64,000 bases of DNA from Planctomycetota bacterium. GTDB lineage: Bacteria; Planctomycetota; UBA11346. Under the pieces are notes generated by a model. That model was not told the origin of the DNA and did no database searches. It was given only the letters and a program-made list of their open reading frames with translations. How positions within the stretch are numbered: the stretch's first letter is position 1; every line of letters begins with the position of its first letter. Positions 52,558 through 64,000 of this stretch are shown piece by piece. The position numbers were made by a program, and so were the translations under genes. The DNA lies in assembly GCA_038231435.1 (NCBI GenBank), contig JBBRLJ010000011.1, positions 32,001 through 96,000 of the forward strand. The letters are read 5' to 3'.

Positions 52558-54408
52558 TCAGCGCTTCACCTTGGCCCTCCGGCTCGAAGTCGCCTTGGTG
52601 GCGGCGGTGACGGATATCGGGGTGATGCCGGCCAGCTCGATCGCCGCTGGACGGGCCTGGGCCGCGCGCAGGCGCGCGAGATCGAGCTTGAGTGAGCGGT
52701 CGAAGCGGACCACGCCGTTCTGTTCCTGGAAGACGTCGGTGAGCTGGGTGTAGCAGTAACCGAACATCCGTGGGTCGTCGAGCAGCACCGCACAGAGCCC
52801 CGCGAAGCGTAGATGGAATTCCTCGACTGTCTGCGGCTTGTTGCCATAGCCCCAAGATGGTTCGCCCGGCTTGAGGTCGGGGTTCCACCAGATTCCGCCA
52901 AATTCGCTGACGAAATACGGCTGGCCGCGGTACGGGATGTTGTGCTGGCCGGGCGAATGATTGATGAACGGCTTGCCGATGCGCAGCCCGGCCTGGTTGA
53001 CCGCGAACGTAGCCGGATCCTGCTCGTAGTCGTGGCTGTCGTAGATGTCGCTCTCGGCAACGCGGTGCGAATACCCGGACACGTCGAGGACGGGCCGCGA
53101 GGTGTCCATCGCCTTGGTGGCCAGGTACAGCGCGCGCATCAGGTCGTCGTGGGCGTGGATGGTGTCCTCGATGCGGTACGAGGTCTCGTTCATCGGGCAC
53201 CAGCCGACGATCGACGGATGGGAATAATCCCGTTCCAGCGCCTCGAGCCATTGCGCCGCATACGTAGCGCCCCACTGCCGCTCATCGTGCAGGTGGCCGA
53301 GCGTGCTCCACGACCAGTCGCCGAATTCGCCCCAGCACAGGTAGCCCATGCGGTCGGCGTGGTACAAGAAGCGCTCCTCGAAGACTTTCTGGTGCAGTCG
53401 CGCGCCATTGAACCCAGCGGCAAGCGACAGCTCGATGTCCTTCACCAGCGCCTGGTCGGACGGCGCGGTCATGATGCCGTCGGGGTAGTAACCTTGGTCG
53501 AGCACCAGGCGCTGGAACACCGGCTTGCCATTGAGCACCACGGCCATGCCATCGATCGCCACCGAACGCAATCCGGCGTAGCTCTCGACGCGGTCGATGA
53601 TCACGCCAGACGAATTGCGCAGCTCGAGGCGCAGCGCGTACAGGTGCGGATCCCCGCACGACCACAAACGGCGGCGCGAGACCGGGATCGGCACCGTCAG
53701 GCGCGGCGACAGCTCGAGCCCGGTGGCGACCGTGGCCTTGGCGACCACGCCCTTCGCGTCCGAGAGCGTCGCGGTCACGGTCATGCCGCGCTCGACGCGC
53801 GTGAGCGGTTGCTCGAGATGGAAGCATCCGTTGGCGACGTCTGGCGTAATGCGCGTGCGCTCGAGCGCGCAAGCCGCGACCGGTTCCATCCATACCGTCT
53901 GCCAGATGCCGGTGGTGCGGGTGTAGTGGCATCCGCAGTTGCCGTGGATCGGCACCTGCTTGCCACGCGGCTGCGGCGGAGCCCAGTCGTCGCGTGCGCG
54001 CACCGTGACCACCGCCTTGGCGCCGGGCGCGACCGCGTCGGTGATGTCGCAGCGGAACGGCGTGAAGCCGCCGCGATGCCGGCCGACCTCGACGCCGTTC
54101 ACCCACACCGTGGCGTCGTAGTCCACCGCGCCGAAGTGCAGAACGATGCGCTTGCCCGCCCACGCCTCGGGCACCGGCACGCTGCGCCGGTACCACACCG
54201 CCAGCATGCGATCGGTGTACCCGATTCCCGACAGCGTCGATTCCGGGCAGAACGGCACGGTGATGGCGCGGTCGAACGGCCTCGACAGTCCGCGCTCGAA
54301 GCCGCTGTCGCCGTGATCGATCTCGAATTCCCATTGGCCATTCAGGCACAGCCACTCGTCGCGGCGGAACTGCGGACGGGGATATTCGCTACGCGGGATG
54401 GACGGCAT
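52558..54408 (-). CDS. Glycoside hydrolase family 2 (paralogue B)
   Basis: EYPRPQF, LNGQWEF, VPFCPES.LSG, HFGAVDY, TGIWQTVW.E, LDQGYYPDG, WCPMNE, SEFGG, GYCYTQLTDVFQE.NG. Confidence 0.93.
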   Translation of the reverse strand: MPSIPRSEYPRPQFRRDEWLCLNGQWEFEIDHGDSGFERGLSRPFDRAITVPFCPESTLSGIGYTDRMLAVWYRRSVPVPEAWAGKRIVLHFGAVDYDATVWVNGVEVGRHRGGFTPFRCDITDAVAPGAKAVVTVRARDDWAPPQPRGKQVPIHGNCGCHYTRTTGIWQTVWMEPVAACALERTRITPDVANGCFHLEQPLTRVERGMTVTATLSDAKGVVAKATVATGLELSPRLTVPIPVSRRRLWSCGDPHLYALRLELRNSSGVIIDRVESYAGLRSVAIDGMAVVLNGKPVFQRLVLDQGYYPDGIMTAPSDQALVKDIELSLAAGFNGARLHQKVFEERFLYHADRMGYLCWGEFGDWSWSTLGHLHDERQWGATYAAQWLEALERDYSHPSIVGWCPMNETSYRIEDTIHAHDDLMRALYLATKAMDTSRPVLDVSGYSHRVAESDIYDSHDYEQDPATFAVNQAGLRIGKPFINHSPGQHNIPYRGQPYFVSEFGGIWWNPDLKPGEPSWGYGNKPQTVEEFHLRFAGLCAVLLDDPRMFGYCYTQLTDVFQEQNGVVRFDRSLKLDLARLRAAQARPAAIELAGITPISVTAATKATSSRRAKVKR

Positions 54409-54458
54409 GGGGCTCCTCGATGCTTCACGGGTGCGGACGGATGCCGGGGCTCGCGCGG

Positions 54459-56327
54459 TCACGTTGATGCCTTCTTGAGTCGTGCGTTCAGTCGTGCGTT
54501 CAGTCGTGATGACTTCTTCGGCGCGCTGGCATCCGGCGAGACGCCGACCAGCTCGTACGCGGCGGGCCTGGCCTGCGCCGCGCGCAGGAGCGCGGGATCG
54601 AACTTCGTGCGGCGGTCGAAATGGAAGAGGCCGTTCTCCTCCTGGAAGACGTCGGTGAGCTGCGTGTAGCAGTAGCCAAATACCTCGGGCGCGTCGAGCA
54701 GCGCGCCGCACAGCGTCTCGAAGCGTTCGATGAACTCGGCGACCGACTTCGGCCGCTCACCGTACCCCCACGACGCATCCCCAGCCTTGGCCTCTGGATT
54801 CCACCATGCGCCGCCGAACTCGCTGATGAAGAACGGCTGTCCGCGGTACGGGATGTTCAGGTCCGGCCAGACGTTTGGCTTTCCCTCCGCGAGCCCGGCG
54901 ATGTTCTCGCGCAGCTTCGCGGGATCCTGGTCGTAATAGTGCATGTCGTAGACATCGCTGTCCGGGACGCGGTGCGAGAAGCCCGAGATGTCGAGCACGG
55001 GCCGCGAACGGTCTGCCGACTTGGTGGCGAGATACATCGCCCGCACCAGATCGTCGACCGCGGTGATGCGCTCATCGTTTTTCTGCTTCTGCTCGTTCAG
55101 CGGGCACCAGCCGATGATCGATGGATGCGAATAGTCGCGCTCGACCGCCTCGAGCCATTGCGCGACGAAGGTGGAACCCGAGCGGTGATGCTCGTTCTGC
55201 CAGCCGGGCAGGTGCGCGCCCCAATCCCCGAACTCCCCCCAGCACAGGTAGCCGAGGCGGTCGGCGTGGTGCAGGAAGCGCTCCTCGAAGACCTTTTGGT
55301 GCAGGCGGGCACCGTTGAAACCGGCGGATTTCGCCAGCTCGATGTCACGGATCAACGCCGCGTCGCTGGGTGCGGTCATGAGTCCGTCCGGCCACCATCC
55401 CTGGTCGAGCACCAGGCGTTGAAACACGCGTTCGCCGTTGATGACCATGGCCCGGCCCTCGATGCGCACCGAGCGGAGCCCGGCGTAGCTATCGACGCGG
55501 TCGACCACCACGCCCTGCGCGTCGACGAGTTCGATGATCAGGTCGTAGAGGTGCGGATCGGCGGGCGACCACAGGCGGACGCGGCTTTCTGGGATGTCGA
55601 GCTCGAGCGCCGGCGCGAAATCGCCATCGGCCCTCACCGTGGCGGTGGCGACCACGCCCTTGGAGTCGCGTGCGGTCGCCCGCGCGCGCAGGCCGGTGGC
55701 ATCGCCGTTGATCGGGAGCTCGAGCCTGAAGCGGCTGGCGCCGACATCCGGCGTGATGCGCGGCCGGCGCAGATGCGTGCGGTTGACCGCCTCGAGCCAG
55801 ACCGTCTGCCAGATGCCGGTGGTGCGGGCATACAGGCAGCCGGAATTGCCGAACGCCTGCGACTGCTTGCCGCGCGCCTGCGGGGGGCGCCAATCGTCGC
55901 GGGCCCGCACCACGATCTCGGCGACTCCGCCGGGCTCGACGACGCCGCGCAGATCGCAGCTGAAGGGCGTGAAGCCGCCGCGGTGGCGCGCGACCTCGAT
56001 CCCGTTCACCCACACCGTCGCATCGTGGTCGACGGCCTGGAAGTGCAGCACCACGTCGCGACCCGCCCAGGCGCGCGGCACCTCGACAGAGCGACGGTAC
56101 CACACCGCCAGCACGCGGTCGACATGGCCGATGCCGGAGAGCGCGGACTCCGGGCAGAACGGCACGGTGATGCGCTCGGCGAGCGAGCGCTTGTCCATCC
56201 CGCGGTCGAGCCCGGTGTCGCCCGGGTCCATCTCGAACTGCCATTCCCCATTGAGCGAGAGCCAGCGCGAGCGCACGAACTGCGGGCGCGGATGCTCGGG
56301 ACGTGGGATGCTCGGTGACTTTGGCAT
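54459..56327 (-). CDS. Glycoside hydrolase family 2 (paralogue A)
   Basis: EHPRPQF, VPFCPES.LSG, TGIWQTVWLE, LDQGWWPDG, WCPLNE, SEFGG, GYCYTQLTDVFQEENG. Confidence 0.93.
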   Translation of the reverse strand: MPKSPSIPRPEHPRPQFVRSRWLSLNGEWQFEMDPGDTGLDRGMDKRSLAERITVPFCPESALSGIGHVDRVLAVWYRRSVEVPRAWAGRDVVLHFQAVDHDATVWVNGIEVARHRGGFTPFSCDLRGVVEPGGVAEIVVRARDDWRPPQARGKQSQAFGNSGCLYARTTGIWQTVWLEAVNRTHLRRPRITPDVGASRFRLELPINGDATGLRARATARDSKGVVATATVRADGDFAPALELDIPESRVRLWSPADPHLYDLIIELVDAQGVVVDRVDSYAGLRSVRIEGRAMVINGERVFQRLVLDQGWWPDGLMTAPSDAALIRDIELAKSAGFNGARLHQKVFEERFLHHADRLGYLCWGEFGDWGAHLPGWQNEHHRSGSTFVAQWLEAVERDYSHPSIIGWCPLNEQKQKNDERITAVDDLVRAMYLATKSADRSRPVLDISGFSHRVPDSDVYDMHYYDQDPAKLRENIAGLAEGKPNVWPDLNIPYRGQPFFISEFGGAWWNPEAKAGDASWGYGERPKSVAEFIERFETLCGALLDAPEVFGYCYTQLTDVFQEENGLFHFDRRTKFDPALLRAAQARPAAYELVGVSPDASAPKKSSRLNARLNARLKKAST

Positions 56328-56574
56328 TGGCGATCCTTTCGCTCTTCTAGGGTCCGTGTGAGAGATACCCCCGATGAATGATCAAGGGAATCGCTCAAAG
56401 ATTCCGAAACATTCGTAAGACTATCACACGCCCATGCGTGATCATTTCAGGGGATGCGCATGGCGGTTCACCCGCCGTACCCCCTCGCATCCAGCAATCA
56501 TCTGCCCTCCGAGCCTCCTGAATGCGCTGCGGTTGCAGTGGACAGCCACCACTGCGCCTCTAATTTCAGCGGCC

Positions 56575-57399
56575 ATGGCGTCCTGGGCGTTCGCGATCCG
56601 TGGTGAAGTGCCGCGCTGGGCCACCATCGTGCTCGGCCTGGTGCCGATAGCCCTGCTGCTGGGGCTGTGGTGGGGCATCACCCACGGCGAACCCGAGGAG
56701 CGGCGCGTCAGCCCCACCATCCTGCCCAGCCCGGGCGAGGTGTTCAGCTACCTGCCCCAGTTGCTGACCCACAAGGGCGAGAACAACCAGGGCAACTTCC
56801 TGTTCCACAACGTGTGGGCGAGCGGCAAGCGCGTCATCAAGGGCTTCCTGCTGGCCCTGGTCATCGTCATGCCGATCGGCATCGGCATGGGCGCCTTCGC
56901 CAGCATCCGTGCCACCTTCGGCTCGTTGATGACCGCGAGCGGCTATATTCCCATCGCCACCCTGGTGCCATTGACCATGTCGTGGTTCGGCACCGACGAG
57001 AAGCAGAAGGTCATCTTCCTGGCCATGGCCTTCGGCATCTACCTGCTGCCGCTGGTGGTGAAGGCCATCGATGGCGTGCCAGATGTGTTCCTGCGCACCG
57101 CCCAGACCCTCGGCGCCACCCGTGCGCAGATCGTCACCCGCGTGCTGGTACCCATCGCCATGCCCGACCTGTGGCATGCCATGCGCCTGGCCTTCGGTGT
57201 CGGCTGGACCTACATCGTGCTCACCGAGGCGTTGGTGCAGACCGACGGCCTCGGCTACCTGATCGAGATCGCGCGCCGCCGCGGCCCGCGCGAGCAGATC
57301 TACCTGGTGATCATGATCATCACCATCATCGCATGGTTCGCCGACCAGCTGTGGATGCGGATCGGCCGCTGGCTCTTCCCGTACCGGCAGGCGCGCTGA
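56575..57399 (+). CDS. ABC transporter permease, SsuC/TauC/NtrB type
   Basis: ILPSPGEV, IP.A.LVPL...WFG.DE.QK, AQTLGA EAA-loop, GLGYLI. Confidence 0.92.
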   Translation: MASWAFAIRGEVPRWATIVLGLVPIALLLGLWWGITHGEPEERRVSPTILPSPGEVFSYLPQLLTHKGENNQGNFLFHNVWASGKRVIKGFLLALVIVMPIGIGMGAFASIRATFGSLMTASGYIPIATLVPLTMSWFGTDEKQKVIFLAMAFGIYLLPLVVKAIDGVPDVFLRTAQTLGATRAQIVTRVLVPIAMPDLWHAMRLAFGVGWTYIVLTEALVQTDGLGYLIEIARRRGPREQIYLVIMIITIIAWFADQLWMRIGRWLFPYRQAR

Positions 57400-58286
57400 T
57401 GGCCGCCGCGATACCACCGCTTCATCCCACGCAGAGCGCGGCGCCGGCCACGGCCCCGCCGCCGATCGTCGAGTTCCGTAACGTCACCATGCGCTTCGGC
57501 GACTTCGTCGCCCTGCACGACGTGTCCTTCCGCATCGAGGACGTGCCCGATCGCGGCGAGTTCGTGACCATGCTCGGGCCCTCGGGCTGCGGCAAGAGCA
57601 CGGTGCTGAACCTCATCACCGGTTTCCTGCAGCCGAGTTCGGGTGAAGTACTGGTGCATGGCAAGCCGGTGGACGGCCCCACCCGCGACCGCGGCATGAT
57701 CTTCCAGCAGTACAGCTCGTTCCCCCACCTCACGGTACTCGACAACGTGCGCTTCGGCTTGGATCTCAACCGCCATGAGCTCAAGCTCGATGGCAAGATG
57801 CGCCACGAGCGCGCCATGGATCTGATCGGCCAGGTCGGCTTGGCCGGGCACGAGTCAAAGTACCCGCACCAGCTCTCGGGAGGTCAGCAGCAGCGTGTCG
57901 CGATCGCGCGATCACTCGCGCTCGAACCGCGCATCCTGCTGATGGACGAGCCGTTCTCGGCGCTCGATGAACCGACGCGCATCGAGATGCAGGAGCTGGT
58001 GGTGGGGCTGTGGAACCGCATCAAGCCGACGGTGTTCTGCGTCACCCACAGCATCACCGAAGCGGTGTACCTCGGCGAGCGGGTGTGGATCTTCGCGGCC
58101 AATCCCGGGCAGATCGTCTACGACATCCGCGATCCGATCCCGCCCTCGCCTGGCATCTCGCCGATGACCGCGCAGGAGCTGCCCGCGTTCAAGCAGGCGG
58201 CGAAGGTGGTGGGCGAGGCCTTCCGGCATGTCGCCGACAACCGCCGTCCGGCTGGCGGGCAGCCTGCCTCCGGGGGCGGGGGCTGA
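57399..58286 (+). CDS. ABC transporter ATP-binding protein, SsuB/TauB type
   Basis: GPSGCGKST, YPHQLSGGQQQRVAIAR, LMDEPFSALD, VTHSITEAV; TGATG coupling. Confidence 0.95.
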   Translation: MAAAIPPLHPTQSAAPATAPPPIVEFRNVTMRFGDFVALHDVSFRIEDVPDRGEFVTMLGPSGCGKSTVLNLITGFLQPSSGEVLVHGKPVDGPTRDRGMIFQQYSSFPHLTVLDNVRFGLDLNRHELKLDGKMRHERAMDLIGQVGLAGHESKYPHQLSGGQQQRVAIARSLALEPRILLMDEPFSALDEPTRIEMQELVVGLWNRIKPTVFCVTHSITEAVYLGERVWIFAANPGQIVYDIRDPIPPSPGISPMTAQELPAFKQAAKVVGEAFRHVADNRRPAGGQPASGGGG

Positions 58287-59155
58287 TGGCCTCGGCTCCC
58301 GGGCTGATGGATTACGTCTCGGCGGCGTTCAACGCGCGGCCAGTCGGGATGTTCGTGCCGCCGAACTGGGTCGGTGTCGCCGCCTTCGGCATGCTCGGTT
58401 TGATCAATCCCGGGCTATGGGTGGTCGGCGCGGGGCTCGAACTCGGCTACCTGTTCTGGCTGGTCCACGAACCCCGCTTCCGCCACATTGTCGAGGGCAG
58501 GGTGGTGGACGCCACCCAGCAGGAATGGCAATTGAAGATCGCGTCGCAGGTGTCGCGGCTGAGTCAGAAGAACCGCGGCAAGTATCAGAATCTCGAATCG
58601 CGCTGCCTCGCGATCATCGACCAGCAAGGCCAGGCAAATGCCGGAGCGTCGGGGCTCGACACCCAGGCCGACGGCCTGAGCCGCCTGCTGTGGATCTACC
58701 TGAGGCTGCTGCAGACCCGCGAATCGATCGCGCGCATCGACGATGGCGCGCCCAGCGCCGATGGCGAGCGCGAGCGTCTCGAGGAGCGCGCCCAGGCGCT
58801 GGCCAAGCAGCTGAAGGATGCGTCGTTGGCCGACGATCTGCGCAAGAGCCTCTCCGGCCAGCTCGACATCGTGCAGCAGCGCCTCGCGAAGCGTAAGGAA
58901 GCCGCGTCCAAGGGCGCGTTCGTCGAAGCCGAAATCCAACGCATCGAGGAGCAGGTCGAGCTGATCCGCGAACAGGCGATGCTCGCTTCCGATCCGCAGA
59001 GCGTGTCGCAGCGTATCGACGAGGTGGCCGCCACCCTGGGCGGCACCAGCGATTGGATCCGCGACCAGCAGCAGGTGTTCGGCCAGGTCGAGGACCTGAT
59101 CAGCGCGCCGCCGCCGCTGGTGAGCGCGAAGGTCCGCGAACGGCAGGCGAATTGA
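58286..59155 (+). CDS. Uncharacterised protein: two N-terminal TM helices plus long coiled coil
   Basis: 'PPNWVGVAAFGMLGLINPGLWVVGAGLELGYLFWL', then heptad-rich 'ERLEERAQALAKQL...EAEIQRIEEQVELIREQA'; TGATG coupling. Confidence 0.85.
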   Translation: MASAPGLMDYVSAAFNARPVGMFVPPNWVGVAAFGMLGLINPGLWVVGAGLELGYLFWLVHEPRFRHIVEGRVVDATQQEWQLKIASQVSRLSQKNRGKYQNLESRCLAIIDQQGQANAGASGLDTQADGLSRLLWIYLRLLQTRESIARIDDGAPSADGERERLEERAQALAKQLKDASLADDLRKSLSGQLDIVQQRLAKRKEAASKGAFVEAEIQRIEEQVELIREQAMLASDPQSVSQRIDEVAATLGGTSDWIRDQQQVFGQVEDLISAPPPLVSAKVRERQAN

Positions 59156-59248: not shown

Positions 59249-59908
59249 ATGAGCATCATCGATCAGCTGCGCGCCGTCGGTGGCCGCCTCGGCATCCTGC
59301 AGATCGAGCAGCCGAAGACCGCCAAGACGCTGACCAAGGTGGTCACGCGTGTCCTCACCCTGGCCGAGCTCGAGAGCGAGGTCGCAGTCGCCGGTGGCGC
59401 GCTGCAGGCGCGCGAGCGCGCTGAGCTGACCAATGATTTCATGGGTATCTGCACCGCTGCCGGCGTCCTCGAGCCGAAGCACGGCTGGACCATCGAACGC
59501 CTCGAACACGAACTTCGCCAACCGACCTTCGCCGGGCTCCAGCGCGCCGCCGCCCAGGCCGCCATCCTCGAGAGTCTGCGCGCCGCCGGCGTCCCGGTCG
59601 AGGACGTGGTTCGCGACGCGGTCGCCCGCGACCAGGCCGTCGACGCGTATGCCGCCGGCATCCGCGAGCAGCTCGCGAGACGTGGCCGGGCCCGCGGCGA
59701 ACGCCGCGCCGCCATTGCCCAGGAGATCGCCCGCCTCACCGCCGAACGCGATCAGCTCGAGACCGCCCATGCCGCCGAGCGCGAACGCTGGCGCGCCTGG
59801 TGGGCCCTCAAGCACGAGAACGAGGTCGCCATGGCCTGGGCCCTGAGCCACCTCCTCGATCAGCCGCTGGTGTCGGTCGACTCGACCCCGCCATCGATCG
59901 ACAGCTGA
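59249..59908 (+). CDS. Uncharacterised coiled-coil protein
   Basis: 'HGWTIERL', 'DVVRDAVARDQAVDAY', coiled coil 'IAQEIARLTAERDQLE', 'W.AW...K..E'. Confidence 0.8.
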   Translation: MSIIDQLRAVGGRLGILQIEQPKTAKTLTKVVTRVLTLAELESEVAVAGGALQARERAELTNDFMGICTAAGVLEPKHGWTIERLEHELRQPTFAGLQRAAAQAAILESLRAAGVPVEDVVRDAVARDQAVDAYAAGIREQLARRGRARGERRAAIAQEIARLTAERDQLETAHAAERERWRAWWALKHENEVAMAWALSHLLDQPLVSVDSTPPSIDS

Positions 59909-60172: not shown

Positions 60173-61993
60173 ATGGCCGATGACAAATCAGCGGGCCTCA
60201 CCGGGCTTGGCAAATTCCTCTCCTTCATCGTCATCATCGGGCTGATCGGCCTCGGCGTCTGGATCTTCCAGCGCCAGGAGGCTGCGCACGCGCAGGGTGC
60301 GGCGAATCCAGCCACCGGTACGGCTACGACCACCGCGGGCGCGGCCACCGGCGGCGGCACCACTGCGGCTGCCGCGGGCGGAACCGCCGCCGCTGTCGCC
60401 GCGGGAACCGCCGGAGCGACTCCTGCGGGGGCCGGGCTCGAGGCTCCCGACGCCGGCAGCGTCACCACGGTGAAGGAATACAAGTTCGTGCCCGCGGAGA
60501 AGCTGCCGCCGGTGAAGGGCGTCAGCCAATACAAGTGGAACGAGGCCGACAAGGTCCTGCGCTTCACCTATAACGTCTGGTCGGGCTGGCTGCCGGTGGT
60601 GGCAGCCAACCACGGCACCAAGGCCAACACCGACAGCCTCTTCTTCAAGAAGCACGGCTTCAAGGTCGAGATGGTGCTGATGGACGACCCGGTCGCGGCG
60701 CGCGACGCTTACGCCTCGGGCGACGTGCACACCCTGTGGGGCACCGTCGACATGATGGTGCTGTTCGCCCCCGAGCTGGCCCGCGATTCGCGCACCGCGC
60801 CGCGCATCGTCCAGCAGCTCGACTGGTCCAACGGCGGCGACGGCATCGTCGTGCGCAAGGCGATCCGCACGGTCAAGGACCTCAAGGGCAAGACCGTCGC
60901 TCTCGCGCAGAATTCGCCCAGCGAGTACTACCTCACTTCGCTGCTGCTGTCGGCTGGCATGAAGCCCGCAGACATCAAGACCAAGTACACCGCCACCGCC
61001 TTCGAGGCCGCCGCGGCGTTCGTCAGCGATCCTTCGATCGACGCCACCGTCTCGTGGTCGCCAGACATCTACAACATCGTCGACCGCGTCGCCGACACCA
61101 AGATCCTCTCATCCACCGCCGATGCCAACAAGCTGATCGCCGACGTCTACGCGGTGCGCGCTGATTTCACCCGCGACCATCCGGATGTCGTCCAGGGCCT
61201 GGTCGAGGGCATCCTCGAAGGCATGGACGAGGTGAAGAAGAATCCCGAACAGGCGTGCGCCTGGATGGCCGACGCATTCGGCATGAAGCCCTCCGACGTC
61301 ATGGCGATGCGCAACGATGCGCACCCGACCAACGCCGCCGAGAACGCCCAGTTCTTCCTGAATTCGTCGAATCCGACCAACTTCGAACGCACCTGGAAGA
61401 GCGCGAGCTACGTCTACCGCGAGCTCGGTCGCATCAACGCCCCGGCGCTGTTCGATCAGGTGATGGACTTCACCTACATCCAGAAGGCCCAGGCCTCGGG
61501 CACCTTCAGCTCGCAGAAGGACGAGAGCGTGGCCACCTTCACGCCCTCGACCCCGAAGAAGGTCAGCGCCGAGGCCCCGATCCTCACCCAGACCATCCGC
61601 ATCAACTTCTATCCGAACTCGTCGAATCCCTTCGAGCCGGCGCGCGACGACGTGGGCATGGTCCAATCCGGCAAACTCTACGATCCGAACGTCACCTCGA
61701 CGCTCGAGCAGGTCGGTCGCCTGGCCGGCCAGTTCGCGCGCGCCACCATCCTGATCCAGGGCTTCACCGACGATAGCATGCGCGGCAAGGTTCCCGAGAA
61801 GGAAGTGAAGCTGCTGAGCACCGAGCGCGCCGAGGCGATCAAGCGCTCGCTCATCGACAAGTTCAAGTTCGACCCGAACAAGTTCGTCATCGAGGGCAAG
61901 GGCTGGGAAACCCCAGCCGACGCCTCGGACCCGCACAACAACTCGCTCAACCGGCGCGTCGAGATCAGCGTCTACCCCCCGGAAGAGAAGTAA
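60173..61993 (+). CDS. Membrane-anchored NMT1/SsuA-like substrate-binding protein fused to a C-terminal OmpA-like domain
   Basis: GAGGAG RBS; TM anchor; Ala/Thr/Gly linker; SBP motifs 'WSGWLP', 'DWSNGGDGIV', 'DLKGKTVA'; OmpA-like 'INF..NS...QGFTD...LSTERAEAIK...GKG...NRRVEI'. Confidence 0.9.
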   Translation: MADDKSAGLTGLGKFLSFIVIIGLIGLGVWIFQRQEAAHAQGAANPATGTATTTAGAATGGGTTAAAAGGTAAAVAAGTAGATPAGAGLEAPDAGSVTTVKEYKFVPAEKLPPVKGVSQYKWNEADKVLRFTYNVWSGWLPVVAANHGTKANTDSLFFKKHGFKVEMVLMDDPVAARDAYASGDVHTLWGTVDMMVLFAPELARDSRTAPRIVQQLDWSNGGDGIVVRKAIRTVKDLKGKTVALAQNSPSEYYLTSLLLSAGMKPADIKTKYTATAFEAAAAFVSDPSIDATVSWSPDIYNIVDRVADTKILSSTADANKLIADVYAVRADFTRDHPDVVQGLVEGILEGMDEVKKNPEQACAWMADAFGMKPSDVMAMRNDAHPTNAAENAQFFLNSSNPTNFERTWKSASYVYRELGRINAPALFDQVMDFTYIQKAQASGTFSSQKDESVATFTPSTPKKVSAEAPILTQTIRINFYPNSSNPFEPARDDVGMVQSGKLYDPNVTSTLEQVGRLAGQFARATILIQGFTDDSMRGKVPEKEVKLLSTERAEAIKRSLIDKFKFDPNKFVIEGKGWETPADASDPHNNSLNRRVEISVYPPEEK

Positions 61994-62049: not shown

Positions 62050-62811
62050 ATGTTCAGCCGCATCGCCAACCTCTTCCGGGGATTCCTGGGACTCTTCGTC
62101 TCGGGTCTCGAGCGCCGCAATCCAGAGGCGCTGCTCGAGGTCGAGCAGGAGAACCTGCGCAAGCAGATCGCCCAGTACAACCAGGGCCTGGCCTCGCACG
62201 CGGGCATGTGCGAGCGGCTGATGTCCCAGGTGAAGAAGCTCGAGATCGAGGAGCGCGATCTGCGCGCCAAGACCGCCGCCAACCTCAAGGTCGGCAATCG
62301 CGCCGCCGCGGGCCAGTACGCCTTGCGCCTGCAGACGGTCACCCGCGAGCTCGACGAGAACCGCGCGCAGCTCGAGCAGGCCGAGACCACCTACAAGGAC
62401 CTGACCAAGGCCCGCGACATCGCCATCTCCACCGCCAAGTCCAAGCTCGAGAGCCTCAAGGGCGCGATCCAGGACATGAAGATGAAGAAGGCCATGGCCG
62501 AGATGAACGAGATGGCCTCGGGCATGATCTCGAACATCGGCGGCGCCGGCGACACGCTCAACCGCCTGCAGACCATGGTCGAGGACGAGCGCACCAAGGC
62601 GGCCGGCCGCGCGCGCGTCGCCAAGGACTCGATCAACATGAACGACGTCAACCTCAAGGAATCCGAGCAGTCGGCGCTCGCCGACCAGGCGCTCGCCGAT
62701 TTCGCCGCCAAAGAAGGCATGGCCTTCGAGGGCGGGCCGGCGGTGGGGACAGCGGCGCCTGCGGCGCAGAAGAGCATGGGTCCGGCCACCGGCGAGAGCG
62801 CGTCCACCTGA
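62050..62811 (+). CDS. PspA/IM30 (Vipp1/ESCRT-III superfamily) protein
   Basis: GGAG RBS; amphipathic N-terminal helix MFSRIANLFRGFL, 'LERRNPEALLE', long coiled coil with 'A.A.LK.G.RAAA..YA', 'DTLNRLQTMVEDE..KA.GRA', 'ALADF'. Confidence 0.9.
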   Translation: MFSRIANLFRGFLGLFVSGLERRNPEALLEVEQENLRKQIAQYNQGLASHAGMCERLMSQVKKLEIEERDLRAKTAANLKVGNRAAAGQYALRLQTVTRELDENRAQLEQAETTYKDLTKARDIAISTAKSKLESLKGAIQDMKMKKAMAEMNEMASGMISNIGGAGDTLNRLQTMVEDERTKAAGRARVAKDSINMNDVNLKESEQSALADQALADFAAKEGMAFEGGPAVGTAAPAAQKSMGPATGESAST

Positions 62812-62812
62812 C

Positions 62813-64000
62813 ATGCCGACACCGGCGACGCCCATCAGCGCCCGTCAGCGCCTGCAGGCCATGGGCCTGCCACGCTGGGCCGAGGATCTGATCACCCAGT
62901 ACGAGAGCGGCGCCACCAGCCAGTTCCTGTGCTATGGCAACGTCAACGACCGGCTGCTGCTTCCGCTCTCGGGTAAGGCTCCAGCGCACGAGGAGCTCGG
63001 CGGCTTCACCGATTTCCTGGTCAAGGTATTGCTGCCACGCTTCGACGTGGTGCTGAGCTTCGATCTCGGCAACGGTCTGCGCCTCGAAAAAGGCGGCGAT
63101 GTCTTCAGCCAATGGCCGCGCCTGAAAGGCGTCGAGCTGCCGCCGCTGCCAAAGACCCCGCGCGAGGCCATCGACTACCTGACCCAGTACTTCCGCTACT
63201 GCGCCAACCTGGCGAAGCTCGGCACCTCGCGCCTGCAGATCGGCTGTCTGATCAAGGGTGCGGATCTGCTGGTACCGGCCTCGATGGGCGCGAACAGCTA
63301 CGACACCAGCGCGCTCGCCAGCCAGATGCGCGACTGGGCGGCCGATGGCACGCTCAGCGGCCATACCCTGGCGACCTTCCTGATCGCCGACAACCTCAAT
63401 GACCTGCATCCGCTGATCGTCAACAATCCGCGGGCCTCGCAGGCCAAGGTCCCTCTGCCGTCGGCCGACGATCTCGCGCGGGCCCTCGCGTTGATGGCTC
63501 CGAGCTACCCGGTCGCGCTCGGCGCTTTGGCTAAGGATCTGCCCGCGACCGCCGCAGGCCTCGCAGGCGCCACGCTCAGCTCGATCGAGGCCCTGCTCAA
63601 GACCAAGGAGCACCTCGGCGAGGCGCTGTCGACCGATGATCTGGTGGCCGTGAAGAAGGCCCTGGTCGAGAAGGACTGTGCCGGACTGATCGAATTCATC
63701 GATTCGAAGCGCACCCTCGATGACATCCATGGCCAAGAGAAGTTGAAGGCTTGGCTGCGCCAGGACATCGCGCTGTGGCGCGCGGGTGACGTGCAAGCGC
63801 TGCCAATGGGGTACCTGGTGTGCGGCCCTGTCGGCACCGGCAAGACCTACCTGGTCGAATGCCTCGCGGGAGAGGCCGGCGTTCCGGTGGTGAAGCTCAA
63901 GAATTTCCGCGACAAATGGGTTGGTTCGACCGAGGGCAACCTCGAGAAGATCTTTCGCCTGATCCACGCTCTCGGGCGCGCCTTCGTGTTCATCGACGAG
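62813..64000 (+). CDS. Classical-clade AAA+ ATPase with degenerate N-terminal domain (Ycf46-like architecture), partial
   Basis: Manual translation is open from ATG 62813 to the window end (396 codons): LPRWAEDLITQYESGATSQFLCYGNVND...; Walker A GPVGTGKT, pore loop RDKWVGSTEGN, Walker B FVFIDE at the very end. Missing from the ORF track. Confidence 0.92.
   Translation, partial: MPTPATPISARQRLQAMGLPRWAEDLITQYESGATSQFLCYGNVNDRLLLPLSGKAPAHEELGGFTDFLVKVLLPRFDVVLSFDLGNGLRLEKGGDVFSQWPRLKGVELPPLPKTPREAIDYLTQYFRYCANLAKLGTSRLQIGCLIKGADLLVPASMGANSYDTSALASQMRDWAADGTLSGHTLATFLIADNLNDLHPLIVNNPRASQAKVPLPSADDLARALALMAPSYPVALGALAKDLPATAAGLAGATLSSIEALLKTKEHLGEALSTDDLVAVKKALVEKDCAGLIEFIDSKRTLDDIHGQEKLKAWLRQDIALWRAGDVQALPMGYLVCGPVGTGKTYLVECLAGEAGVPVVKLKNFRDKWVGSTEGNLEKIFRLIHALGRAFVFIDE

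Follow-up and report, generated by a model that had tools for sequence, protein, structure and literature searches.

The pspA-ATPase gene pair and its operon

The window analyzed here is a stretch of 64,000 nucleotides from a Planctomycetota genome (GenBank assembly GCA_038231435.1, contig JBBRLJ010000011.1, positions 32,001 to 96,000 of the forward strand; G000:C11:32001-96000 in our numbering). At its right end lie the two adjacent genes with which this report is concerned: pspA, encoding a PspA/IM30 protein that belongs to the ESCRT-III superfamily, and a gene for an AAA+ ATPase. They are the last two of seven genes on the same strand, which we treat as an operon. The seven genes are given below in operon order, together with the sub-features of the last two; the ATPase gene extends 534 bases beyond the window end.

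56575..57399, plus strand: ATP-binding cassette (ABC) permease, NitT/TauT type (Pfam BPD_transp_1, E 1.3e-11; TauC/SaoP-like matches below cut-off)
57399..58286, plus strand: ABC transporter ATPase (Pfam ABC_tran, E 5.3e-32); its start overlaps the permease stop
58286..59155, plus strand: transmembrane coiled-coil protein (hydrophobic helices at its N terminus, long helices of the coiled-coil type)
59249..59908, plus strand: helical protein without a known family, found in some of the operons (no Pfam match over cut-off)
60173..61993, plus strand: membrane-anchored solute-binding protein carrying an OmpA-like peptidoglycan-binding domain as a C-terminal fusion (Pfam NMT1, E 1e-14; OmpA, E 2.7e-9)
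62050..62811, plus strand: PspA/IM30, with a low-complexity tail past helix 5 (Pfam PF04012, over cut-off)
62770..62784, plus strand: PspA tail motif K-S-M-G-P, amino acids 241-245, pattern K/R-x-[MILV]-G (conservation in tails)
62813..63682, plus strand: N-terminal module of the ATPase (about amino acids 1-290), a degenerate AAA+ module without Walker A (model and structural alignment)
63683..64000, plus strand: apparently active AAA+ module of the ATPase (Pfam AAA, E 6.1e-23); the gene ends at window-equivalent 64534 (G000:C11:96534)

Stops and starts overlap among the first three genes; the start codon of the permease was inferred, the longest open reading frame (ORF) beginning at 56434. 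PspA is 253 amino acids long, scores 37.2 bits against the PspA_IM30 model of Pfam (PF04012, cut-off 33.9), and is the sole match to that family in the assembly, which is 88% complete. Its stop codon (TGA, 62809-62811) is separated by a single base from the ATG of the ATPase at 62813, an arrangement noted in an initial annotation of the window and borne out by the ORF coordinates. Named homologs at 62-67% identity come, among others, from Armatimonadota, Abditibacteriaceae, Acidobacteriota and Sumerlaeota.

The adjacency of the two genes is not a matter of chance, because pspA lies within the fetched stretch at 41 of 65 genome loci of the ATPase (the window included) and at 47 of 80 metagenome loci. 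The initial annotation had named orthologs mostly not adjacent to pspA as evidence that would count against it; a conserved link with PspA is supported here. At 25 of the 47 metagenome loci no labelled gene separates pspA from the ATPase gene, and at the other 22 the transmembrane coiled-coil gene lies between the pair. Where at least 2 kb of upstream sequence is available, pspA is present at 30 of 41 metagenome loci; the 11 loci that lack it form a single clade nested among the pspA-linked ones. In one genome (G064) the operon-type pspA is found in two pieces about 1.2 Mb apart (G064:C3:32979-33488 and G064:C3:1267987-1268229), of which the 3' piece, with the tail motif, still adjoins the ATPase gene, reflecting either a rearrangement or an assembly artefact.

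The ATPase clade found away from pspA has neighbors of its own. A gene for a FecR-domain, anti-sigma-like protein stands beside the ATPase gene in 12 of 14 tree rows, in varying orientation, the remaining 2 rows having no downstream sequence (metagenome loci of this clade include L183, L186, L188, L193, L199, L204, L207, L212, L213, L214, L216, L220 and L221). These ATPases may have been repurposed for the unfolding of anti-sigma factors, or the linkage may be mere synteny of the lineage.

Anatomy of the ATPase

The ATPase is 573 amino acids in length (G000:C11:94813-96534). A single AAA domain is recognized by Pfam, at amino acids 335-461, and includes a Walker A motif, GPVGTGKT (amino acids 338-345; 63824-63847), a pore loop, KWVG (368-371; 63914-63925), and a Walker B motif, FVFIDE (391-396; 63983-64000), whose last base is the end of the window. 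The translation thus contains all three motifs named in the initial annotation. The second region of homology, RPDLIEVDLKRPGR, is of the RPGR type. No match to the MIT domain was found in the protein at Pfam E<=0.1, and Vps4_C (PF09336) had no match in the ATPase or anywhere in the assembly.

These features hold for the family as a whole. Exactly one G-x4-GK[TS] motif is present in each of 145 members, Walker B reads DEAD in 145 of 145, and an aromatic-x-G pore loop is found in 144 of 145, with the wordings KWVG (58 members), RWVG (35), QWQG (11), KWIG (11) and others. The KR-x-GR arginine finger is retained across the family and reads KRPGR in the window ATPase. An AlphaFold model built with 120 homologs (predicted local distance difference test score, pLDDT, 85.4; predicted template modelling score 0.72) gives the N-terminal part a five-strand alpha/beta core and a helical lid; the active module comes next. 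Because each protein has one Walker A motif, together with DEAD and the aromatic-x-Gly loop, the first ring is, by its sequence, degenerate and the second looks active.

Part of the interpretation given in the initial annotation is upheld. It had supposed a dead first AAA ring in the first 290 or so residues and had called for a structure prediction of this part; the model, the structural searches and the single Walker A motif in 145 of 145 members all agree that this is an AAA fold, and an alpha/beta one in which, as it had also stated, no MIT domain can be recognized. Its placement of the protein among the threading-type ATPases of the classical clade is likewise supported by the Walker A and B motifs, the aromatic-x-Gly loop, and the second region of homology with its arginine finger.

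Relationships of the ATPase

Structural comparisons place the whole protein with double-ring unfoldases. Foldseek aligns its full length to Drg1, p97, Rix7 and Cdc48 (about 600 columns, TM-score about 0.55), and a wider structural search puts Rix7 (Z 20.4, root-mean-square deviation 5.4, 456 aligned residues) and NVL at the top; the whole-length alignment also takes in VAT. Vps4 (Z 19.4, root-mean-square deviation 3.2, 261 aligned residues), spastin and FtsH match the second module only. The NCBIfam scores of 65.8 bits for CDC48, 60.1 for FtsH and 31.5 for CdvC are all far under the respective cut-offs, and bacterial ATPases that do carry Vps4_C score 155-250 bits on CdvC.

In a phylogeny, which the initial annotation had recommended, the family forms one clade (support 100/99), with ATPases of Paenibacillaceae plasmids as its nearest rows. 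A branch with 99/97 support sets the family and the Paenibacillaceae rows apart from Ycf46-like, Cdc48, FtsH and Vps4_C-positive proteins. This careful tree holds 40 of 102 rows, L085 and a Nocardia row having been dropped for their long branches, and even so long branches meet in it (a warning given by the tool); the tree of all 102 rows was made in quick mode. The separation from Vps4 is tentative: in an approximately unbiased (AU) test, a tree uniting the family with the Vps4_C-positive set was not rejected (p 0.08), the references being bacterial, with no archaeal or eukaryotic Vps4 among them. The nearest outside relatives, L143-L146, are encoded on plasmids of 360-720 kb in Paenibacillus, Brevibacillus and Aneurinibacillus, often near DUF262 and oligoribonuclease-like genes.

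The initial annotation had taken the KWVG pore loop as a pointer to Vps4, and this did not hold. Besides a Ycf46-like paralog in the same genome, many unrelated bacterial AAA proteins carry the same loop, a Cdc48-like protein from Nocardia and the majority of bacterial Vps4_C-positive ATPases included; its wording also differs between members of the family. Since the loop occurs in the Ycf46-like paralog and other classical AAA proteins, KWVG, as a sequence feature, marks the classical AAA clade and not Vps4. The ATPase is probably an analog of Vps4 and not an ortholog, and its architecture is like that of Cdc48 and Rix7. The paralog just mentioned is a separate 550-amino-acid protein (L114, G000:C20:85348-85737), which is labelled Ycf46-like by a motif and not by a library match. 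At two other loci, L100 and L103 (G082:C354 and G126:C812), two different Vps4_C-positive, single-module AAA genes stand side by side, one with an RPGR-type and one with an SRF-type second region of homology, which suggests a heteromeric pair.

A conserved motif in the PspA tail

Past helix 5, the operon-type PspAs continue into a low-complexity linker and then the motif K/R-x-[MILV]-G, often followed by P. Its glycine, residue 244 in the window protein, is the only tail column conserved at 90% or more among 28 aligned PspAs, which range down to 17% identity with that of the window. The motif was spotted in the first genome loci, and the metagenome PspAs and those unlinked from the ATPase were looked at afterwards: it is present in 43 of 47 of the former and in the last 30 residues of 16 of 17 of the latter, the other one having it further upstream. 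In all, 84 of 88 distinct tails bear it, 12-27 residues past helix 5; the other four show near variants, and in two PspAs it is doubled in tandem. In 1000 shuffles of the tails the motif turned up in 2.2 tails on average and in no more than 8, compared with 67 of 71 for the real sequences.

The motif is not a general property of PspA. None of 30 canonical PspAs of the same phylum has it in the tail; in 4 of them the pattern is matched solely where helix 5 ends. In six genomes (G214, G276, G198, G230, G181 and G126) the two kinds occur together, the canonical PspA lacking the motif and the operon-type PspA bearing it. Furthermore, the tail changes with the ATPase. In a sister clade of the ATPase, PspA ends in [LI]PE at 12 of 12 loci, an ending found at 0 of 88 in the main clade, and in a third, small clade (4 proteins) it ends in Q-K/R-I-A/S-E. 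All 10 genomes with PspA and ATPase and no match to the transmembrane coiled-coil protein retain the main motif, this null coming from incomplete assemblies in which at most 8 candidates were scored. On the other operon proteins of the window the only occurrence is KVVG, within the C-terminal region of the ABC ATPase.

These results lend substance to the suggestion, made in the initial annotation, that the flexible PspA tail matters to the ATPase: a conserved motif lies there, and it changes with the ATPase clade. The pattern is likely to represent a short docking motif for the ATPase. Structure prediction of the ATPase with PspA residues 195-253 gave weak support for a complex, scoring 0.58 with 0.00 for the best of 3 controls. 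Of 157 solved complexes 116 attain the mark used, as do 2 of 215 mismatched pairs; among those attaining it, only 18 of the 157 solved complexes, and both of the mismatches, score 0.60 or less. At least 41% of contacts are shared between the prediction runs, and the pLDDT of the partner is at least 44.

Co-occurrence of PspA and ATPase across genomes

Among 301 genomes of the phylum, the ATPase (E<=1e-55) was identified in 45 and the operon-type PspA subfamily (E<1e-40) in 46, with both present in 44. The co-occurrence holds also where the two genes are unlinked. The PspA profile was built partly from 26 of the PspA-positive genomes; in those outside the profile, 18 of 20 have the ATPase, compared with 1 of the 255 genomes that lack the PspA subfamily. 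One genome with the PspA subfamily and no ATPase match, G164 (79% complete), has a PspA that also lacks the motif.

Other genes of the operon and its surroundings

The transmembrane coiled-coil gene was found in 35 of the 301 genomes, all 35 of which have the ATPase. Its product is modelled as all-helical (pLDDT 85) and has no Pfam match at E<0.05. An ESCRT-III fold was looked for in it and not found, comparison with PspA giving an hhalign probability of 1.2% and Foldseek no match at E<=0.001. Many of these proteins end in an acidic stretch and then prolines (for example EDLISAPPP), one subgroup being without such an end; the ends bear a loose resemblance to the proline-rich MIM2 motifs. In Ravi et al. 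2024 (mSystems, PMC11237479) the gene at the matching position is labelled 'SIG+TM+Snf7'; the Snf7 label was not confirmed here.

Several loci keep the solute-binding protein with no permease nearby, which suggests a role in sensing or anchoring and not in import alone. Two or more solute-binding-type genes lie around pspA at L083, L088, L090, L092 and L095, all of the [LI]PE clade. Homologs of the helical protein are found at 13 of 65 genome loci, as counted with the first-round profile; the iterated profile drew in shadow ORFs, and its labels were set aside.

Divergently upstream of the operon, on the minus strand at 52558-56327, are two similar ORFs in tandem, of 717 and 622 amino acids, which by eye resemble glycoside hydrolases. 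A sigma-54 promoter was also sought and rejected: with at most one mismatch to the consensus, 44 matches were found and 40.2 expected, and the window contains no exact match.

Proposed function of the gene pair

What is observed comprises the gene pair itself, intact catalytic motifs in the second module of the ATPase, a degenerate first module, near-perfect co-occurrence, and a tail motif linked to the ATPase clade. We favor, with a probability of roughly 0.55, the reading that the ATPase is a dedicated disassembly motor for PspA polymers and is predicted to dock on the K-x-hydrophobic-G motif of the PspA tail. Following the established biology of ESCRT-III and Cdc48, PspA would form polymers on the inner membrane under stress, the tail being exposed, and the ATPase would assemble into a double-ring hexamer. 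The dead ring would stand in for an MIT or N domain as the platform that binds the motif, and the active ring's aromatic pore loop (W369) would thread a PspA subunit out of the lattice, so that the polymer is recycled or remodelled. More speculatively, PspA might be brought to the membrane by the transmembrane coiled-coil protein, and the OmpA-anchored binding protein, either alone or together with the ABC importer, might report on the envelope's state; of these roles that of the importer is the least clear.

A wider form of this proposal we put forward tentatively, at somewhat less than even odds. Bacteria may have evolved the logic of ESCRT-III and Vps4 independently, the dead ring of a Cdc48-like motor reading a clade-specific code in the PspA tail and driving ATP-dependent turnover of the polymer. 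The code would be K-x-hydrophobic-G in the main clade and [LI]PE in the sister clade, and would be the bacterial counterpart of the MIM motifs.

A number of observations weigh against a PspA disassembly motor or temper the evidence for it. The classical Asn of Sensor-1 is replaced by Ser, Cys, Thr or Ala in 133 of 145 family members (those where it was read), by Ser in the window ATPase, and therefore ATPase activity may be atypical. The complex score lies in the weak band and came with no interface, and the PspA fragment used includes helix 5, so that the predicted contact is not placed at the motif. As to linkage, pspA is missing from 11 of the 41 metagenome loci that have 2 kb or more of upstream sequence, and this clade adjoins instead the FecR-domain gene, the product of which does not carry the tail motif in its tail. 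No pspA was seen nearby at genome loci L081, L084 and L087, which belong to another subclade, or near the four Paenibacillaceae plasmid relatives. One genome, G275 (82% complete), has a motif-bearing PspA and no ATPase match, its operon being cut by a contig end; another, G228 (90% complete), has the ATPase and the transmembrane protein and no PspA match, and none of the three ORFs upstream of its ATPase gene, where a divergent PspA was sought, has a Pfam match. The co-occurrence counts come from related genomes, which means that they overstate independence and do not amount to a statistical test; moreover, the data had been seen when the E-value thresholds were chosen and the motif defined. 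The literature searched, which did not extend to subscription journals or bioRxiv supplements, shows no experiment on the PspA-ATPase pair.

The same co-occurrence and motif data would fit an ATPase that binds PspA through the tail motif without unfolding it, acting as an assembly chaperone or regulator that, for example, holds PspA soluble until stress in the manner of PspF, or loads it onto the transmembrane coiled-coil protein. The departure of Sensor-1 from the classical Asn is compatible with such a role, and bound PspF has been described as inhibiting PspA assembly (PMC7619361). However, the aromatic pore loop, the Walker A and B motifs and the KR-x-GR finger are kept family-wide, as threading expects, and a non-threading role seems unlikely to us. 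It is also doubtful that PspA is a secondary partner, the main client being the transmembrane coiled-coil protein or the complex of ABC transporter and solute-binding protein, which would be extracted or remodelled at the membrane while the PspA motif binds that partner. Such an arrangement would account for the presence of the ATPase in 35 of 35 genomes with the transmembrane coiled-coil gene, the position of that gene between pspA and the ATPase gene at many loci, the gene content of G228, and the ATPase clade that has swapped pspA for a FecR neighbor. Yet in 10 of the 44 genomes with PspA and ATPase the transmembrane coiled-coil protein has no match and the motif is kept in every one, and no such gene was seen at the 12 loci of the [LI]PE clade.

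In plants, cpHsc70-1 binds the C-terminal tail of VIPP1 and promotes disassembly (PMC12798727), and a general chaperone (DnaK/Hsp70) might handle the PspA tail in the same way, the ATPase being merely a co-regulated unfoldase of envelope stress. We consider this improbable: a universal chaperone leaves the switch of motif with ATPase clade unexplained, as it does the canonical PspAs without the motif in the same six genomes. That the ATPase is a true Vps4/CdvC ortholog derived from archaea we regard as very improbable indeed. The Z score of its active module against Vps4 (19.4) is within about 1 of the top rows, and the AU test with the bacterial Vps4_C-positive set, at p 0.08, does not reject the grouping. 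The protein nevertheless matches neither MIT nor Vps4_C, has two modules and not one, scores 31.5 bits on CdvC as against 65.8 on CDC48 where bacterial Vps4_C-positive ATPases reach 155-250 on CdvC, and is parted from those ATPases by the 99/97 branch.

Comparison with known systems

It is not settled how bacterial ESCRT-III polymers come apart: Liu et al. 2021 raise the question of an equivalent ATPase (PMC8281802), according to a 2025 review (PMC7619361) an ATPase like Vps4 'appears absent in bacteria', and a 2026 review describes the regulation of disassembly as unclear (PMC13051332). This gene pair was proposed as a candidate in 2024, and the tail motif makes the question of a disassembly motor directly testable.

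Both the operon type and the ESCRT-III/Vps4 analogy are thus already published. Ravi et al. 2024 (PMC11237479) report occasional co-occurrence of bacterial PspA and a protein having two AAA+ modules, the first inactive, describe longer operons of the order PspA > PBPB+OmpA > TM permease > ABC-ATPase > TM+Snf7 > inactive-AAA+AAA, and liken the pair to Snf7/Vps4, that is, to ESCRT-III/Vps4; their examples include AEY64321.1, AEY64320.1 and OGG56892.1. The same analogy, drawn in the initial annotation, was reasonable, but had been published before. The window operon shares with theirs the same six gene types (for TM+Snf7, a transmembrane coiled-coil gene whose Snf7 nature is putative), the two-module ATPase with an inactive first module, the adjacency of PspA and ATPase, and the linked ABC ATPase, permease and NMT1+OmpA protein (all three by Pfam). 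It differs in its permuted gene order and its extra helical gene, whereas relatives at L050, L052, L064, L066, L071 and L079 have the gene order as published. The available parts of their text and supplement contain no mention that we found of the tail motif, its switch between clades, or co-occurrence of unlinked genes, and the literature searched gave no report of the tail motif. What is new here is the clade-matched PspA tail motif and the co-occurrence of PspA and ATPase, unlinked genes included.

The PspA/PspF system of Proteobacteria also pairs PspA with an AAA+ protein, PspF being an NtrC-type sigma-54 activator with a helix-turn-helix domain (PMC11237479). The window ATPase is different, as no sigma-54 activator or helix-turn-helix family is among its Pfam and NCBIfam matches. 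With Ycf46-like AAA proteins it has in common a similar length, one recognizable C-terminal AAA module and, in L114, the KWVG loop; they form a separate clade (100/100), however, with an RKGRFDE signature. The double-ring unfoldases Cdc48/p97, VAT, Rix7/NVL, Drg1 and Pex1/6 share its tandem D1-D2 architecture and provide the best PDB sequence matches. In contrast to these, the window ATPase has no N domain, its first ring has lost Walker A, identity is only 14-18%, and its 65.8 bits on CDC48 (TIGR01243) compare with a cut-off of 802.65.

Flexible C-terminal extensions that likely coat the outside of the ring have been described for Vipp1 (PMC8281802). There is also a parallel in organization with ESCRT-III/Vps4 (CdvB/CdvC), where a polymer bearing a short motif on its flexible C-terminal tail is likewise matched with an aromatic-loop AAA+ ATPase of the classical clade. 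The two systems differ in that the window ATPase lacks MIT and Vps4_C, has two AAA modules, and has a second region of homology of the RPGR type. The PspA tail motif, too, is unlike the consensus of MIM1 and MIM2.

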